Source: Pseudomonadota bacterium
GTDB lineage: Bacteria; Pseudomonadota; Gammaproteobacteria; Steroidobacterales; Steroidobacteraceae
Direction: 5' to 3'
NCBI GenBank assembly: GCA_021809525.1
Contig: JAKAYU010000001.1
Coordinates: 1 to 57,714 of the forward strand
Length of the DNA: 57,714 nucleotides
Shown here in pieces: positions 6,010 to 12,687 of this stretch. The position numbers and the translations under genes are program-made. Position 1 is the stretch's first letter. Every line of letters begins with the position of its first letter. The notes below the pieces were generated by a model. The model was given only the letters and a program-made list of their open reading frames with translations, made no database searches and was not told where the DNA came from.

Positions 6010-8322
6010 ATGAAATCCCTCAGGGCGGCCGCTGTGCGCCTCGGCGTGTTCGGCCTCGCGGCACTGCTCGGCGTGCGTATCGGCGTTGCCACCGCAGCGC
6101 CTGCGGCTGCTGCCCCGCGCTTGCGACCGGGGGTATACGTCGCCAATCCGCACGCGCTGCGCCCGGGCGCAACGCATCGCCCGCGCATCGGACTGGTGCT
6201 CTCAGGAGGCGGGGCGCGCGGGCTGGCGCACATCGGTGTGCTCAAGGTGCTGCAGAAACTGCGCGTGCCGATCGACGCGATCGCCGGCACGAGCATGGGG
6301 GCGGTGGTGGGGGGGCTGTACGCCAGCGGACTTACCGCCGGGCAGATCGAGGCGGTGGTCCGCTCGCTCAACTGGCAGGAGGCGTTCCGCGATCAACCGC
6401 CGCGTCAGGATCTGTCGCTGCGGCGCAAGGAAGAAGATGAGAATTTCCTGGTCGACTTCCGCATCGGAGTGCGCGACGGCCACCTGGTGCTGCCCCAGGG
6501 GCTGATCGAGGGGCAGAGTCTCACCGAGATGCTGCGCCGCCTGACGCTCCCGGTCGCGCGCATCACCAATTTCAACGATCTGCCGACGCCCTTCCGCGCG
6601 GTCGCCACCGATCTGGCGACCGGCAAGGAAGTGGTGATGAGCTCCGGGGACCTCACCAGCGCGATGCGTGCGAGCATGTCGGCCCCGGGGGTGTTTGCGC
6701 CGGTTGCCCGCGACGGACGGCTGCTGATCGATGGCGGTGTCTCCGACAACGTGCCGATCGACGTCGCGCGCGAGATGGGCGTCGATGTGCTCATCGTCGT
6801 CGATGTGAGCTATCCGCTGCAGCCGCCGGCGCGCCTGAACGGCGTGGCGGGCATCAGCGCCCAGACGCTCGCGATCCTCATGCAGCGCAAGTCCGACGAG
6901 GAGCTGGCCACCCTGACCCCCCGGGACGTGCTCATCCGGCCGGACCTGCAGGGCATCTCCTCGTTCGATTTCGGCAACGTCAACCGCCTGCTCGCCATCG
7001 GCGAGGCGGCCGCCTGGAAGATGCGCAAGCGCCTGGAGGCGTTCTCGGTGAGTCCGGCCGCCTACCGCCGCTACGAGCAGCGGCGGGCAAGTCTGCGCAG
7101 GGTGCCCCCGCGGATCGCCTTCGTCGAGGTGCAGACCGGCTCGCGCTCCTTCTCCGCGCCGATCGAGAAGCTTTTCGGGGACATGGTCGGCAAGCGCCTC
7201 AATCCCGATGCCATCGCCCGGCGCATCACGACGCTGTACGGCCAGGGTGGTCTCGATACGCTCGATTACCAGCTGGTGCGCCGCGGCGGGCGCTACGGCC
7301 TGCTGATCGACGCGCGGCGCGCTTCGATCGGCCCGAATTACCTGCGCTTCGGGGTGAGCCTGCAGGATGACTTCTCCGGCGATGCGACGTACGAGGCGGC
7401 CGCCCGCTACGTCATGTCCGAGATCACCCGCTCGGGCGGGGAGTGGGTGACGGACGGGGAGATCGGGCAGACCTCACGGCTCGCCACCGAGGTGTATCTG
7501 CCGTTTTCGAAGTTCTCCGGTTGGTTTGTTCTGCCGCGGGTGTCGATCGGGGCGAGCGACCTGCCGTTTCTCATCGGGCAGAGCGTGCGCGCGCAGTACC
7601 GCGTGCACACGTTCAGATACGGCCTGGACATCGGCAAGCAGTTCAGCGACTGGGGCGAGATCCGCGCCGGGGTCTACCGCGAGGCGGGGCATTCGCGCCT
7701 GAGCATCGGCGATCCGAACGATCCGGCCCTGCCGTTTCCGCCGCTGCAGAACTTCGGCTCGCTCACCTACTTCCTGCGTTTCAGCTACGACACCCTCGAC
7801 AACATCAATTTCCCGCACTCCGGCGAGCAGGCGGCGCTGCAGTGGAGCAGCGCGCACCAGGCCATCGGCGCGGTGTCGAGCTACAACCGCGTGACGTTCC
7901 ATTTCATTGCGGCGCACACCTGGCATGACCGCAATACGGTGGCCTTCTCGCTCTCCGGCGGCAGCCTGCTCAACCGCGCCACCGACCTGCGCATGGAGTT
8001 TCCGCTCGGCGGGTTCCTGAACCTCTCGGGCCTGAAGCCTTACTCACTGTACGGACCGCACTACGGCATCGCGCGGCTGCTGGTGTACCGCGAGATCGAC
8101 CGCGGCGGCCCCGGCTATCTCGGAGTGCCGATCTACCTTGGCATGTCGCTCGAGGCGGGCAACGTGTGGCAGCACATGAGTCAGGCGAAGTTGAGCACCC
8201 TGCACAAGGACGCGAGCATCTTCCTCGGGCTCGACACGTTCCTCGGACCGGTTTATCTCGGCAGCGGGTTCGACGATCACGGCAACCAGGCCTACTACCT
8301 GTTCCTCGGCCGCACGTTTTGA
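6010..8322 (+). CDS. patatin-like phospholipase fused to an Omp85-type beta-barrel (PlpD-like type Vd autotransporter)
   Basis: Signal peptide '[31 protein letters not shown]'. Patatin motifs 'SGGGARG', 'GTSMGA' and 'DGGVSDN'. The long C-terminal region is rich in beta-strand patterns and ends in the outer-membrane-protein-type terminal 'LGRTF'. The start is moved to ATG 6010 because the 5668 extension overlaps the opposite-strand TPR gene. Confidence 0.85.
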
Positions 8323-8356: not shown

Positions 8357-8623
8357 CTAGATGCGGCGGCTCTCGACCAGGTTCTCGACCTTCTGGAATA
8401 CCAGCGCCGGCTTGTCCCCGGAGCGCGAGTACAGGTGTCGACGGCTCATCTCGGCCAGCGCCGCATCGCGCTCGGCGGCGGTGGCGTACCAGTGCAGCCG
8501 GTGCCACTCGGGACCGACCAGCTTGCTGAACGGATCCCCGGGCATGAGGCTCACACGGACCCCGTAAGGCTGCGGACGCTGCGCGTAGGGTGCTTTGAGA
8601 TTTTGTGGCTGGCTGATTCCCAT
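8357..8623 (-). CDS. small conserved hypothetical protein
   Basis: 88-aa ORF with strong GC3 bias typical of real genes in this window ('[32 protein letters not shown]'). No named family recognised and no clear Shine-Dalgarno sequence. Confidence 0.5.
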
Positions 8624-8707: not shown

Positions 8708-9370
8708 ATGGCCTCATCGCACAAGAGAATGACCCTGCCGGAGGCGCCCGAGGCGCTGCCCGGGCGCAGCACCCCGCTTAAGGTGCCCGATCTGCATTTC
8801 GTCAGCGGCCATCGCATCGTGCCGCCGTTTCCGGCGGGCCTGCGCGAGGCGCTGTTCGCGATGGGCTGCTTCTGGGGCGCCGAGCGACTCTTCTGGGAGC
8901 TGCCCGGCGTGTACGCCACGGCGGTCGGTTATGCCGGGGGCCTGACGCCCAATCCGACCTATCGGGAAGTGTGCACGGGCCTGACCGCTCATGCCGAGGT
9001 GGTGCGCGTGATCTACGATCCGGCGCGCATCGGCTACGAGGCACTGCTGAAGGCGTTCTGGGAGTCGCACGATCCCACTCAGGGGATGCGCCAGGGCGGT
9101 GATGAGGGCACGCAGTACCGCTCGATGATTTTCACCGCGGATGCCGCGCAGCGTGAGGCGGCCGAGGCATCGCGCGACGCCTATCAGGCGCGGCTCACGC
9201 CTGCCGGCCTCGGGACGATTACGACGCAGATCGCACCCTGGCCGACCTTCTACTACGCCGAGGACTACCACCAGCAGTACCTCGCGAAGAATCCGGATGG
9301 CTACTGCGGGATAGGGGGATGCGGAGTTCCCTTCAAACTCGCGGAGTTGCAAGTGAGGGAGAAGGCGTAG
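8708..9370 (+). CDS. msrA: peptide-methionine (S)-S-oxide reductase
   Basis: Catalytic 'GCFWG' motif, '[17 protein letters not shown]', '[22 protein letters not shown]'. GGAGGAG lies upstream of ATG 8708. The last ~20 codons are lower in G+C and appear to be islet-derived (see findings). Confidence 0.93.
9263..9309 (+). repeat. left copy of an imperfect direct repeat (msrA tail); candidate attL, with an 11-bp identical core GGCTACTGCGG at 9299-9309
   Basis: By hand alignment, 40 of 47 nt are identical to 11114-11160. The protein-level similarity continues through GYCG(I/L)GGCGV. Confidence 0.7.
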
Positions 9371-9593
9371 TATTCGCTACGCTGTGGGTTTCAACAGGAA
9401 GTCGCGTGGTTAGCATCGGCTTGCCAGAATGCACCACGTATTTCGGCAGAAAAAGGCCGGTTGGTTTCGGCGCCGACGTCTACCGGAAGTCTACCGTCTC
9501 CCGAGATCTTGGATAATCCGCGGCGAACGGGATCGGACGGTCTGGCGAAATCTATGGGAGCGGAGCGATTCACAAGAGCCTGATGGGATAGCA

Positions 9594-10315
9594 ATGGCGG
9601 TGACAAAGGAAGGCATTCTCGCGGCGATTGAGCGTGCTGCAGCAGAGCGGGGCGGGAGAATCGGCTTGGCTGCCTCTCTGGAGGAAACCGGGATCCCCGA
9701 GAAACAGATTCTTGGCAAGCACAGGGCGACTTGGAATGAAGCCCTTTCCGAGGCGGGAGTCAAGACTGCAAGTTTCGCAAAGCCTCGAACTCCAGAGGAG
9801 ACCGTACTGGAGGCCCTTAGTCAGTTCGTTGTTCGCCTCGGCAAGTGGCCAACAGAGAACCAGCTCTCCTTCGAGCGTCGTCGCAACCGCGCGTTCCCAA
9901 GCCTTGGTGTATTCCGACGAATGCTTCGAGCGTGAAACGTCCAGGGAAGCTGCTCGCCCATTGTGCGGGCCGTGAGGAATTTGCTTCGGTACGGGACCTG
10001 GTGGGTCAGTTGCCTCAGCTCGACACTGGCAACGACTTGGGCAATCGTGCACCCGTTCAGGGCTTCGTGTGCAGGATGCGTTCCGGCAGGCGCTACAAAA
10101 TTGGCTTCACCAACTCCCCGAACCGGCGATTCCGCGAAGTTCGAATCGAACTCCCGGATCCAACGCACATAGTTCATACGATCGAGACGGACGGTCCTGC
10201 AGGCATAGAGGGTTATTGGCATCGCCGGTTCGCGTCGAAGCGCGTTCGGGATACGGAGTTTTTCGAGCTCGACTCTGGCGACGTCGCGGCCTTCAAGCGA
10301 CGCAAGTACCAGTAG
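9594..10315 (+). pseudogene. frameshifted free-standing endonuclease-like gene: two homing-endonuclease-associated (HNH_repeat-type) repeats plus a C-terminal T5orf172/GIY-YIG-like domain
   Basis: The N-terminal part is in frame 0 (9594-9935: 'KEGILAAIERAAAERGGRIGL...TWNEALSEAG', second repeat 'EETVLEALSQFVVRLGKWPTENQ...FPSLGVFRR') and stops at TGA 9933-9935. The C-terminal part is in frame 2 and open from 9845 ('KLLAHCAGREEF...GFVCRMRSGRRYKIGFTNSPNRRFREVRIELPD...IEGYWHRRFASKRVRDTEFFELDSGDVAAFKRRKYQ'). The two frames overlap over 9845-9935. Confidence 0.7.
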
Positions 10316-10337
10316 ATCCGCCGGCCATTTGCTTTTT

Positions 10338-10374
10338 AGTAACGCTTGACGTTACTAACGGAAAACGTTAATAT
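10338..10374 (+). promoter_or_regulatory. candidate higBA promoter with overlapping palindromic operators
   Basis: TTGACG (10346-10351), a 17-nt spacer, then TAATAT (10369-10374). Inverted repeats are AGTAACG-cttga-CGTTACT (10338-10356) and TAACG-gaaaa-CGTTA (10356-10370). This is the most AT-rich stretch of the islet. Confidence 0.45.
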
Positions 10375-10380
10375 TCAGGC

Positions 10381-10662
10381 GTGATCAAATCCTCTCGTGG
10401 CAAGGAAGCCGGCAAGGTGTGGAGCCGCGAGTACTCCAAGCGTATTCCGCGCGACATCCAAGAGCGGGAATTGATGAAGCTGCAGCAGCTGAATGCGGCC
10501 GGAGTCCTGAAAGACCTTTCGATTCCGAGCTCGAATCCGCTCGAGTCTCTGAAGGGTGATCGAAAGGGCGAGTACAGCATTCGGATCAACAAGCAGTGGC
10601 GGATCTGTTTCAAGTGGCGTGACGGGCATGCTTTCGACGTCGAGATCGTCGACTATCACTAG
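10381..10662 (+). CDS. higB: HigB-type toxin (plasmid maintenance system killer, RelE/ParE superfamily)
   Basis: 93 aa with a GTG start. The family-typical N-terminus is 'MIKS...' and the C-terminus is 'LKGDRKGEYSIRINKQWRICFKWRDGHAFDVEIVDYH'. Confidence 0.88.
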   Translation: MIKSSRGKEAGKVWSREYSKRIPRDIQERELMKLQQLNAAGVLKDLSIPSSNPLESLKGDRKGEYSIRINKQWRICFKWRDGHAFDVEIVDYH

Positions 10663-10676
10663 GCGGGAATAGGGTT

Positions 10677-11000
10677 ATGGCAGCGCGAAAGATCAAGCTT
10701 ACTCACCCGGGCAAGATCCTCCGGGAGGAGTTCATGGAGCCAGTAGGCCTAAGCGCGTATGCGCTGGCCAAGGCCCTGGACGTTCCGCTGCCTCGTGTAA
10801 ACGACATCGTGCGCGAGAAGCGCTCGATCTCGCCGGAAATGGCCGTGCTGCTCTCGGCGTATTTCGGCACGTCCGACGATTATTGGATCAATTTGCAGGG
10901 GCACTTCGACCTGGAAATGGCCAAGGACAAGGTCGGCAAGCAGGCCGCCCGGATCAGCCCTCATCCTCACGGCGCAAACGGCAGTTTGCAGCCCGTCTGA
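10677..11000 (+). CDS. higA: HigA-family antitoxin (XRE-type HTH)
   Basis: 'HPGKILREEFMEPVGLSAYALAKALDVPLPRVNDIVREKRSISPEMAVLLSAYFGTSDDYWINLQGHFDL' matches the HigA antidote family. It lies 14 nt downstream of higB. Confidence 0.9.
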   Translation: MAARKIKLTHPGKILREEFMEPVGLSAYALAKALDVPLPRVNDIVREKRSISPEMAVLLSAYFGTSDDYWINLQGHFDLEMAKDKVGKQAARISPHPHGANGSLQPV

Positions 11001-11113
11001 GGTCCACGCTGGTCTACCGGTACAACGGCGCTGAGCGCTACCGGAAGTCGACCTGGCAGTGCTGCGAGCAGATGTGACTGCCGGGCGTTTGTGGGATTTC
11101 CATGCTCAGCGCC

Positions 11114-11200
11114 GACTACCGCTAGCAGTACTTGGCGAAGAATTCCGACGGCTACTGCGGCCTCGGCGGCTGCGGCGTGGCGTACTCCAAGGCGGTCTGA
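11114..11200 (+). pseudogene. msrA: displaced 3' fragment of msrA (candidate attR plus the native msrA tail)
   Basis: Reads DYR*QYLAKNSDGYCGLGGCGVAYSKAV* in one frame and repeats the DNA of 9263-9309. The part to the right of the 11-bp core (11161-11200) is GC-rich like the host. Confidence 0.7.
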
Positions 11201-11358
11201 GCCCGCAGTGAATCCGGTGTCGCGCCGAGCCGCACCCCGGCATCAACTCATGCCGAGGGGTGCTTGATTTCCCGCCCGGTTCCCACCGAGAATCTCTCTC
11301 GAGCGCCCGCGACCCAGTGGGCGGGCTATTGGCAAGCGCGCCGGCTTCGAGGGGCCTC

Positions 11359-12687
11359 ATGTCACGTCGTCTTTCCACTGCCGCAGGCGCGGCGGGGTTC
11401 GTGTGCGTCGTTGCTCTTGCGCCCCCCGCGGCCCGCGCGGCGGGACTGGCATTGGCCGCGACGCACGCGGTCAATTCCGGCAATACCGCCTGGCTGCTGA
11501 CTTCCACCGCACTCGTGCTGTCGATGACGCTGCCCGGCCTGGTGGCGTTCTACTCCGGCCTCGTGCGCAGCAAGAACGTGCTGTCGGTGGCGATGCAGTG
11601 TTTCGCGATCGCCTGCCTGGTGAGCATTCTGTGGGTGGCGGGCGGCTATGGGCTGGCCTTTGGCCGCGGCGGCACGCTGCAGGAGCTCATCGGTTCGCCT
11701 GCGGCCGGGTGGCTGGGCAGCATCGGCCGCAACGCGCTGCACGGCACGACGCCCGTGGCCGCCTTCGCGATGTTTCAGCTGACCTTCGCGATCATCACCC
11801 CGGCGCTGGTGATCGGCGGGTTCGCCGAGCGGATCAAGTTCAGCGCGGTGCTGTGGTTCTCGGGGCTGTGGCTGCTGCTGGTCTATCTGCCGGTCTGTCA
11901 CTGGGTCTGGGGCGGGGGCTGGCTGGCGCGGCTCGGGGTGCTCGATTTTGCCGGCGGCATCGTCGTGCACGTCACCGCAGGCGTCGGTGCGCTGGTGAGC
12001 GCGCTCGTGCTGCGCGAGCGCAAGGGCTTCCCGCACCTCGCCATGCCGCCGCACAACATGACGCTCACCATTCTCGGCGCCGGCATGCTCTGGGTGGGCT
12101 GGTTCGGGTTCAACGGCGGCAGCGCGCTCGCGGCGAACGGAACGGCCGCCATGGCCATTCTGGTGACGCACCTCGGCGCCTCGGCCGGCGCTCTGGCGTG
12201 GATGAGCGCCGAGTGGCGCAAGTTCGGCAAGCCGAGCGTGCTCGGCCTGGTCACGGGCATGGTCGCGGGGCTCGGCACCATCACGCCGGCCTCCGGGTTC
12301 GTCGGGCCGCTCGGGGGGGTGATCATCGGCGCGACCGCCGGTCTGGTGTGTTTCTCCGCCACGCAGGTCCTCAAGCGCAAGCTGCTCATCGACGATTCGC
12401 TCGATGTCTCGCCGGTGCACGGCGTGGGCGGTGTGCTCGGCACGACCCTCACCGGCGTGTTCGTCGCGGCGCCCCTCGGCGGAGTGGGTTACGCGGCGGG
12501 GATGGACCTGCTCCGTCAGGTCGGCGTGCAGATCCTTGGGGTCGTGAGCGTCGGGCTGTGGTGCGCGGGCCTCACGTACGTGATCCTCAAAGTGCTGCAG
12601 GCCACCATCGGACTGCGCGTCACCGAGGATCAGGAGCGCGAGGGACTCGATCTCTCGCAGCACGGCGAACGCGCCTACAATGAGTGA
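11359..12687 (+). CDS. amtB: ammonium transporter (Amt family) with signal peptide
   Basis: 'NSGNTAWLLTSTALVLSMTLPGLVAFYSGLVRSKNVL', 'DFAGGIVVHVTAGVGALV', 'GWFGFNGGSA' and 'DVSPVHGVGGVLGT' are Amt signatures. The start is set at ATG 11359 (signal peptide MSRRLSTAAGAAGFVCVVALA). Confidence 0.93.
   Translation: MSRRLSTAAGAAGFVCVVALAPPAARAAGLALAATHAVNSGNTAWLLTSTALVLSMTLPGLVAFYSGLVRSKNVLSVAMQCFAIACLVSILWVAGGYGLAFGRGGTLQELIGSPAAGWLGSIGRNALHGTTPVAAFAMFQLTFAIITPALVIGGFAERIKFSAVLWFSGLWLLLVYLPVCHWVWGGGWLARLGVLDFAGGIVVHVTAGVGALVSALVLRERKGFPHLAMPPHNMTLTILGAGMLWVGWFGFNGGSALAANGTAAMAILVTHLGASAGALAWMSAEWRKFGKPSVLGLVTGMVAGLGTITPASGFVGPLGGVIIGATAGLVCFSATQVLKRKLLIDDSLDVSPVHGVGGVLGTTLTGVFVAAPLGGVGYAAGMDLLRQVGVQILGVVSVGLWCAGLTYVILKVLQATIGLRVTEDQEREGLDLSQHGERAYNE

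Follow-up and report, generated by a model that had tools for sequence, protein, structure and literature searches.

The window analyzed here, a 57,714-nucleotide stretch of a Steroidobacteraceae genome (contig JAKAYU010000001.1 of assembly GCA_021809525.1), codes for a 220-aa MsrA at 8708-9370 (Pfam PMSR, E=3e-62), and the last 36 codons of this msrA gene recur 1851 bp downstream, bracketing a small islet. The two copies of the tail (9263-9327 and 11114-11178) align without gaps, with 52 of 65 nucleotides identical (80%). A preceding interpretation made from the letters alone (the sequence-only reading) had counted 40 identities in 47 nucleotides between 9263-9309 and 11114-11160 by hand, a count that the alignment reproduced. 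It had also named chance similarity as one outcome that would undo its proposal; when the msrA tail was compared by blastn with the remaining window sequence, the tail repeat scored E=1.2e-11 and the runner-up match E=0.25, and the 11-mer GGCTACTGCGG was found solely at 9299 and 11150 in the window, against a shuffle expectation of 0.03 copies. The similarity is thus above chance. The earlier translations hold as well: the downstream copy reads DYR, a stop (the in-frame TAG at 11123-11125), QYLAKNSDGYCGLGGCGVAYSKAV and a second stop.

Three coding features lie between the tail copies, namely a broken nuclease gene and the two genes of a higBA pair, in agreement with the coding content first proposed for the islet. 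The claim that the insert lacks a recombinase was likewise confirmed by Pfam for all islet open reading frames (ORFs), and a recombinase is also absent from the rest of the 57-kb window, which otherwise codes for central metabolism. The GC fraction falls from ~0.66-0.71 in msrA to 0.53-0.61 between ~9300 and 11000 and rises to 0.64-0.72 beyond. The lower GC content proposed for the DNA between the repeats was therefore recovered, but not the exact switch at the 11-mer, since the change is gradual at 200-nt resolution. The parts of the locus are given below in order; L004 is a sister genome, L006 a relative with an empty site, and L013 and L084 carry orthologous cassettes.

8708..9265, forward strand: host-derived part of msrA, codons 1-186; Pfam PMSR match, ~94.6% identity to L004 and ~81% to L006, conserved synteny; the base profiles of first and internal copies differ up to 9265.
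9266..9294, forward strand: left junction with an attL-like core, TACCACCAGCAGTACCTCGCGAAGAATCC, one mismatch from the 29-nt consensus of 92 site copies; likely crossover within TACCACC, 9266-9272.
9266..9370, forward strand: cassette-borne replacement MsrA tail, of the 35-codon type that follows every cassette junction; the tail at the empty site of L006 differs and is shorter.
9371..9530, forward strand: right-hand site arm, which is the left end of the cassette, with GGTTAG, TTTCGGCAGAAAAAG and the double heptamer GTCTACCGGAAGTCTACC (9478-9495); ~70-85% conserved between unrelated cassettes.
9600..10315, forward strand: pseudogene of a 238-240-aa protein with HNH_repeat and T5orf172/MUG113 (GIY-YIG-like) regions, 87-92% identical to its intact homologue P0001, interrupted in frame by TGA (9933-9935) and frameshifted at 9945-9946.
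10346..10375, forward strand: promoter-like site, presumably for higBA, from a consensus scan; overlaps the palindrome TAGTAACG..CGTTACTA.
10381..10662, forward strand: higB toxin gene, 93 aa (Pfam HigB-like_toxin, PF05015, E=2e-17), equal in length in the orthologous cassettes of L013 and L084.
10677..11000, forward strand: higA antitoxin gene, 107 aa (Pfam HTH_3, PF01381, E=6e-9), equal in length in L013 and L084.
11007..11113, forward strand: left-hand site arm, which is the right end of the cassette, with GTCTACC (11012-11018) and GCTACCGGAAGTCGACC (11037-11053); forms the direct repeat D2 with 9468-9495.
11114..11200, forward strand: attR-like right junction containing a stop (11123-11125) and the native TGA (11198-11200); its core (11117-11145) is degenerate, and the displaced native msrA tail comes after it; orthologous to L004 from 11165, the tail being 85% identical to the functional tail of L006.

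The insert lies within the 3' end of msrA, provides the gene end in current use and has the native end pushed downstream of it, as the sequence-only reading had concluded. The identical locus is present in three other assemblies (L001-L003), and we recovered the msrA loci of related genomes by a protein-guided scan. The empty site that had been predicted was found in L006 (81% MsrA identity, upstream synteny kept), where msrA runs straight into GLGGCGVAYSHAV and a stop, a tail of the type GVAYSHAV, with nothing inserted; this tail shares 85% DNA identity with the downstream tail copy of the window. L004 (94% MsrA identity) has a window-like architecture with different cargo: its msrA, ending in PFKFAQLQPGEKA and a stop, is followed by ~1 kb with BrnT and BrnA (PF04365, PF14384), a second tail reading GLGGCGVAYSKA, and then amt, the DNA on the amt side being 94% identical to the window. 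The proposed search for other copies of the insert recovered L013, whose MsrA is only 71% identical and which nevertheless carries the higBA segment of the window at 87% nucleotide identity. Its cassette (L013:6518-7700) is a deletion derivative without the equivalent of window 9410-10216 and has on either side a perfect direct repeat, ~110 bp long, that spans the entire msrA tail of L013, a pattern suggesting that gene conversion recently homogenized the tails or that the cassette moved recently inside a single population. Thus, with L006 empty, L004 bearing other cargo and L013 sharing the cargo of the window, the cargo is mobile between distant hosts and swapped between sister genomes, always between two msrA tails.

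Cassette arms lie behind msrA in at least six of the 11 judgeable closest genomic relatives (L004, L009, L010, L013, L014 and L016) and are absent there in L006, L008 and L012. The sequence-only reading had held that cassette-free relatives with the current tail would speak against an insertion. Such tails, of the GEKA type and without arms, do occur in L008 and L012, but both genomes are distant (72-75% MsrA identity), and the closest empty site, that of L006, has the other tail. These two loci indicate that the GEKA-type tail is native in some lineages, and it is presumably in such lineages that the cassette family arose. In a further relative with 81% identity, msrA ends in GVPYRFADLPGG and a stop and is followed by just the last ~90 bp of amt (L007:6600-7100), which looks like a deletion that extends from a cassette-type tail into amt and removed both the cassette and the native tail.

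Of the intact T5orf172 homologues, the one nearest to the window version (P0001, 87% identity) is on contig L084, where T5orf172, higB and higA show 88% identity to window 9513-11178 and are followed by a tail copy and ~130 bp resembling 9371-9496. A second cassette stands in tandem behind it, with an ORF of no assigned family and a Gp49/helix-turn-helix (HTH) pair, and ends in a third tail copy and the same downstream region. These tail copies and their shared flanks indicate that the repeated unit is larger than the tail. It is a composite site of ~370 bp in which the msrA tail stands between two heptamer arms: a ~160-bp right-hand arm follows the stop (window 9371-9530), and a ~105-bp left-hand arm precedes each non-first tail (11007-11113), including the tail copies of L013, L084 and more than 50 metagenome copies.

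We then scanned public metagenome contigs with the motif GTCTACCGGAAGTCKACC and matched at least 120 contigs, all from soil, peat or sediment. In most of them the motif adjoins copies of the msrA tail, and many contain arrays of 2-5 tails, with five tails in 13.7 kb in L114, msrA and four tails in L140, three tails each in L165, L170 and L183/L187, and msrA and two tails in L196. The homology of the array copies to the window always begins at 9263 and extends to ~9496-9527. The cassettes carry 0.8-3 kb of cargo, of which dozens of different kinds occur across these contigs; HigBA (14-16 contigs), BrnTA (7-9), ParE, MazF/PemK, ORF6N and TIR-domain proteins are recurrent. No recurrent recombinase emerged from 120 array contigs by ORF clustering, by catalytic-motif screens or by Pfam on 129 ORFs of 240-470 aa, where the 25 commonest families were considered and single occurrences could be hidden. 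The higBA cassette is present in at least 10 contigs with differing neighbors, typical versions beginning at window position 10337 without the nuclease, and L142 and L170 have a common cassette, 96% identical, with both flanks differing and homology beginning precisely at GACTATCACC. We count both patterns as indications of cassette-wise mobility. There is, apparently, a large and undescribed family of recombinase-less cassettes arrayed behind msrA in soil bacteria.

The arms were also considered as structured RNA, a candidate ruled out by two results: Rfam gave no match in 9000-11500 except a chance snoRNA (E=2), and the consensus fold of 16 right arms came to -3.35 kcal/mol, with no covariation and no conserved pairs. 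The single-strand DNA fold of one internal site (z=-2.6) is not attC-like. As the arms belong to no known RNA family and have no conserved structure, protein binding is the likeliest cause of their conservation. As a separate observation, the left arm (window 11007-11113 and its equivalents in L089-L208) reads as LVYRWIDVNVYRKSTG or LVYRWIDVNVYRKSTGR ahead of a stop in 57 of 92 copies, in frame with the next msrA tail; this frame has a conserved TAA inside GTAAC, and the right arm also contains a DVYRKST reading. The frame might be what is left of a decayed coding sequence, or else a by-product of a heptamer that binds protein.

The sequence-only reading had placed the crossover in the 11-mer, but the junction most likely lies ~35 nt upstream, at the start of the repeat, as judged from base profiles, the type of constraint and the junctions of integrase islands. 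First, the base profiles of 29 msrA-proximal and 92 internal or terminal copies clearly differ up to the third base of the GAC codon and are indistinguishable from TATCACC on, with the unusual T-ending codons TAT and AAT common to both sets. Second, within the first ten codons (GAC TAT CAC CAG CAG TAC CTS GCG AAG AAT) the wobble entropy at codons 2-4 and 8-10 is low relative to later codons, and past codon 10 the copies vary chiefly at the wobble base, a pattern suggestive, but not conclusive, of a DNA-level constraint on the left of the tail and a protein-level one on the right. The crossover most likely falls within TAYCACC, at 9266-9272 and 11117-11123 of the window, in which case MsrA residues 187-220 would be cassette-derived. 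Third, integrase islands meet the arrays at the same position (see below). The layout of the site might be that of a lambda-type tyrosine-integrase attachment site, with TAYCACC(AGCAGTACCTSGCGAAGAA) as the core candidate, three heptamers on its left at ~70-100 bp and two on its right at ~210 bp.

We consider it fairly probable that window 9266-11116 (1851 bp) is an integrase-less cassette of a family that inserts in msrA codons 187-189 (TAYCACC), comparable to the cis-mobilizable elements (CIMEs) and moved in trans. Such a cassette consists of a ~160-bp conserved non-coding left arm and a ~105-bp right arm, both with direct GTCTACC heptamers, and a small cargo between them. Its left end brings a complete replacement for the last 34 msrA codons, with the host keeping a full-length MsrA and both C-terminal cysteines. 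The insertion would displace the native tail of the host downstream, where decay would follow (the stop at 11123 being an instance), and repeated insertion at one core would generate arrays of the form msrA-(tail-cargo)n-native tail. The reaction would be a conservative site-specific recombination by a tyrosine integrase acting in trans, supplied by an integrase-bearing island that uses the same core. The sequences themselves show the anatomy, the family and its arrays, the lack of a recombinase in cis, the place of the junction and an integrase island located there, whereas the movement of the cassettes by an integrase, and the identity of that integrase, are inferred.

An island of this kind is present inside a cassette array at L200:5380-11830. 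Its tyrosine integrase gene is split by an element of the IS3 insertion sequence family (orfA/orfB, ~6089-7266) and is followed by Mrr-like and NERD/helicase genes; intact homologues of the integrase, with 82-92% identity, match PF00589. On the left side of the island, in L200, L211/L213 and L220, a cassette-type left arm and, after it, the signature TTCAGCGCCGAC lead into TATCACC (TATCATC in L220 and TATCGTA in L211), past which a decayed, stop-containing msrA-like stretch extends into the integrase promoter region. On its right side in L200, unrelated low-GC DNA ending in GGGT meets a normal tail beginning TATCACCGGCAGTACC, and there is no site homology left of TATCACC. That the homology ends at TATCACC on this side points to site-specific insertion at the very position that bounds every cassette. 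With an integrase island at the cassette junction, an integrase acting in trans is the best explanation for the cassettes.

Several observations weigh against this interpretation. The island has its own motif, TTGTCAATT, ~80-100 bp on either side of the core, is devoid of GTCTACC arms and may not act on the cassettes; given the difference between the arms, the cognate enzyme of the cassettes is probably a different integrase. The cognate integrase was not found in the array contigs or in the integrase-homologue search, in which the homologue P0133 proved to lie at a locus other than msrA, where the only core-like sequence is a distant one, and neither an excised circle nor a restored junction was observed. 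Sampling by the exact arm motif inflates the apparent conservation of that motif, which is conserved too in loci found by other means. Further, the window and L004 copies each share within-genome variants around 9283-9318, the tails of L142 and L170 are 10-14% diverged as against 3% in cargo and arms, and in L013 the entire tail is duplicated perfectly over 110 bp. Finer mapping of the window against L004 gave dense differences at 9283-9356 in the left copy and 11092-11164 in the right copy. We read the tail patterns in the window, L004 and L142/L170 as probable gene conversion among tail copies, and because the tails look mosaic, neither the window and L004 nor L142 and L170 place the crossover any more finely. 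RecA-type gene conversion on the repeats implies that homologous recombination could do more than we have credited to it.

The main rival explanation carries this further and attributes the cassettes to RecA-dependent homologous recombination alone, either through a Campbell-type single crossover of a circle via its carried tail or through double-crossover replacement after DNA uptake, with the ~370-bp sites as anchors. To judge from the tails, homologous recombination clearly also acts on the repeats, and the absence of a recombinase in cis anywhere, the perfect repeat in L013 and the signs of gene conversion are all as this explanation would have them, as is the mismatch of the boundaries between the window and L004 (attL at ~9283-9292 versus attR at 11164/11165). 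As a sole mechanism it is nonetheless unlikely, because the sites of different cassettes are ~70-80% identical, with longest invariant runs of ~20-30 bp, and make a poor RecA substrate; because the heptamer arms, non-coding and non-folding, show conserved positions and sequences to either side of each copy, pointing to a bound protein; because one sharp left boundary is common to all copies; and because the integrase island is inserted exactly at that boundary, with no msrA or arm homology left of TATCACC and only a decayed, ~70%-identical msrA-like stretch to the right.

The islet could alternatively be the deletion remnant of one larger integrase-bearing island that once occupied msrA, rather than a member of an integrase-free travelling family. 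Such an origin is assumed for CIMEs (PMC6323972), decay is plain to see in the window copy (the pseudogene and the degenerate right site), and L013 holds a deletion derivative of the same cassette, minus 9410-10216. We regard this as quite improbable, since at least 120 contigs contain the same small unit, with its two arms intact and dozens of different cargos of 0.8-3 kb, and since the island at the site has other arms and no functional tail, which implies that the cassettes are not its trimmed copies.

Homing, by which the T5orf172/GIY-YIG-like nuclease would cut a cassette-free msrA and break repair would copy in the cassette with a cleavage-resistant tail, would have a parallel in fungal mitochondria, where mobile endonuclease ORFs supply a gene with a substitute 3' end, fits the homing-endonuclease-type gene with HNH_repeat DNA-binding repeats in the islet and would account for both the carried tail and the missing recombinase, but it is very improbable, as the nuclease is missing from most cassettes, including most higBA ones, and is not among the gene clusters common to three or more contigs, its homologues lie in unrelated contexts and not at msrA, tandem arrays with conserved arms are not a product of homing, and the gene is a pseudogene in the window. 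The T5orf172 protein was accordingly ruled out as the mobilizing enzyme, since most cassettes have no such gene and its homologues adjoin an element with a large serine recombinase (L085-87) or occur in unrelated DNA (L088); a free-standing homing endonuclease element was rejected on the same ground, the endonuclease not being a constant part of the unit.

Having favored the trans-mobilized cassette, we compared it with known systems. The anatomy given by the sequence-only reading was right, but it was wrong about the crossover point and about the islet matching no described class of mobile element, since integrase-less elements bounded by attL and attR, the CIMEs, and their tandem accretion are described (PMC6323972). 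The CIME is the closest described concept: the msrA cassettes similarly have no integrase or transfer genes, sit between attL and attR where a housekeeping gene has its 3' end, stack in tandem and presumably depend on the integrase of another element. They differ from CIMEs in an att site that is a ~370-bp composite including 34 functional codons, in their size of 1-3 kb, in the dominance of toxin-antitoxin genes and in their long arrays. The attL/attR pair is represented by the direct repeat 9263-9327/11114-11178 with arms on its inner sides, a structure shared by L004, L013, L084 and at least 120 contigs, and genes for integration or transfer are absent by the Pfam analysis of the islet, in the 57-kb window and, as recurrent recombinases, in the array contigs. 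As to a shared integrase, PF00589 islands occupy the same TATCACC junction in the arrays, yet have the arm motif TTGTCAATT as against GTCTACC in the cassettes. Tandem accretion of CIMEs, ICEs (integrative and conjugative elements) and IMEs (integrative and mobilizable elements) is exemplified by the fda locus of Streptococcus thermophilus; no ICE or IME with arms matching those of the msrA cassettes was found.

Chromosomal integron arrays consist of small recombinase-less cassettes that are often rich in toxin-antitoxin genes. The msrA cassettes resemble them functionally, in being small and recombinase-less, in being bounded each by a site copy beside a fixed chromosomal anchor and in their frequent toxin-antitoxin cargo. 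Unlike integrons, the msrA array has no intI, attI or Pc beside it, its site contains the end of a coding gene, and the cargo has its own promoter-like site. Identity with integron attC sites was rejected, as the arms are direct repeats, GTAAC and GGTTAC misfit RYYYAAC and GTTRRRY and are ~190 bp apart, the fold gave z=-2.6 and 16 copies have no conserved pairs. Integron membership was rejected as well, there being no intI or attI adjoining msrA, upstream of which lie a patatin-like gene and an 88-aa ORF and no recombinase; the same upstream gene is found in 15 array contigs. Somewhat speculatively, the family might amount to an integron-like gene-capture platform on msrA in soil Steroidobacteraceae-like bacteria: a cassette system not yet described, as opposed to scattered decayed islands, with arrays of toxin-antitoxin, TIR, ORF6N and other cassettes, ~370-bp sites doubling as a spare, selected MsrA C-terminus, and a recombinase encoded elsewhere.

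In staphylococci, staphylococcal cassette chromosome (SCC) and pseudo-SCC elements occur in tandem at the 3' end of rlmH, the latter without recombinase genes. Salmonella genomic island 1 (SGI1) integrates at the 3' end of trmE and restores the gene (PMC8409611). Like SGI1 and SCC, the msrA cassettes target the 3' end of a conserved gene, bring a substitute end and form tandem composites that include recombinase-less members, as with pseudo-SCC. In contrast, SGI1 (Int) and SCC (Ccr serine recombinases) are defined by their own integrase, whereas the cassettes described here target msrA and in their common form have no recombinase. The Tycheposon islands of Prochlorococcus have arrays of partial tRNAs (bioRxiv 10.1101/2020.12.28.424599) and are similar in that older elements are shifted outward with each further integration at a single site, and partial target-gene copies and degenerate elements are left behind; there, however, the target is a tRNA gene, the intact elements have a tyrosine recombinase, and the partial tRNAs are scars, not selected replacement ends. 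The use of msrA as an attachment site with an att overlapping the coding sequence recalls prophage PhiM247 of Lactobacillus crispatus, whose att is 96 nt at the 5' end of msrA (PMC10763512), but PhiM247 is a full prophage with its own integrase, at the opposite end of the gene and in an unrelated phylum. A limited literature search gave no published report of the msrA 3' end as an attachment site or of such arrays. Compared by eye with the 28-bp dif consensus, the junction sequences were unlike it, which gives no sign of integrative mobile elements exploiting Xer (IMEX/XerCD).

If the family behaves as its anatomy suggests, it would represent a second route, besides integrons, by which small recombinase-less cassettes are amassed at one chromosomal address. 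Each cassette would have to bring a working end for a housekeeping gene, so that selection on MsrA would keep the attachment site intact, and the family would offer a natural system for trans-mobilization, for the overlap of att and coding sequence, and for the spread of toxin-antitoxin and defense genes in uncultured soil bacteria. The MsrA C-termini in these genomes would be chimeric, and native ends that have been displaced will escape gene callers. As regards just the window, the outcome is more modest, namely one fixed, decaying cassette, and the wider family is the more interesting result.

The 35-codon frame and its stop are kept in 68 of 92 non-first copies, consistent with selection on the function of the MsrA tail. 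The terminal copies of the window, L004, L108, L180 and L185 are of the short type ending in AYSxAV and a stop and would represent native ends that were displaced. GYCG(I/L)GGCGV is retained in both tail types, and we take this region, from Cys198 and Cys206 of E. coli MsrA, to hold the recycling cysteines; of the earlier proposal that the element preserves its target gene, the retention of this motif was confirmed, whereas the preservation of MsrA function itself is plausible only. The left core of the window has one mismatch in 29 positions to the consensus. Its right core has five, which places it among the worst three of 92, with two of them inside TACCGCT as against TACCACC and one changing CAG to TAG. 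With its degenerate right site and its nuclease pseudogene, the window copy looks fossilized; it is probably fixed and can no longer excise, and it might be kept at least in part by its addiction module.

That module has the features of a type II toxin-antitoxin system of the HigBA kind, with a HigB/RelE-fold gene first and an HTH (Xre-type) gene second, 14 bp apart. A palindrome, TAGTAACGCTTGACGTTACTA (10334-10375), overlaps the -35 element of the only promoter-like site of the islet and is probably the HigA operator. The plasmid collection gave generic similarity only for higBA and nothing matching the site; in viral contigs, the arm motif had one chance match inside a phage structural gene and the core had none. 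In the nuclease pseudogene, the MUG113/T5orf172 Pfam match covers 9845-10315 with a weak HNH_repeat upstream, and PADLOC gave a weak match to the candidate family PDC-S57 and no other. A 62%-identical T5orf172 homologue is found on L085:1-6723 (also L086 and L087), where the surrounding element also encodes a large serine recombinase (Resolvase, Recombinase and Zn_ribbon_recom) and DUF2924 and lies beside a tRNA-synt_1c gene, and a further homologue lies in unrelated DNA (L088).

The 88-aa ORF that lies divergently upstream of msrA (8357-8623, reverse strand) has no Pfam match and is called as a gene in L001-L003. Its DNA is conserved whether or not a relative carries cassettes, which makes it an improbable component of the system. 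Finally, in an actinobacterial metagenome-assembled genome of the Pseudonocardiaceae (L083:6832-6894), a second msrA tail with a stop (YHQ, the stop and YLHHNKNGYCGLGGTGV) lies ~200 bp past msrA; the 3' end of msrA may thus be an attachment site outside this cassette family too.

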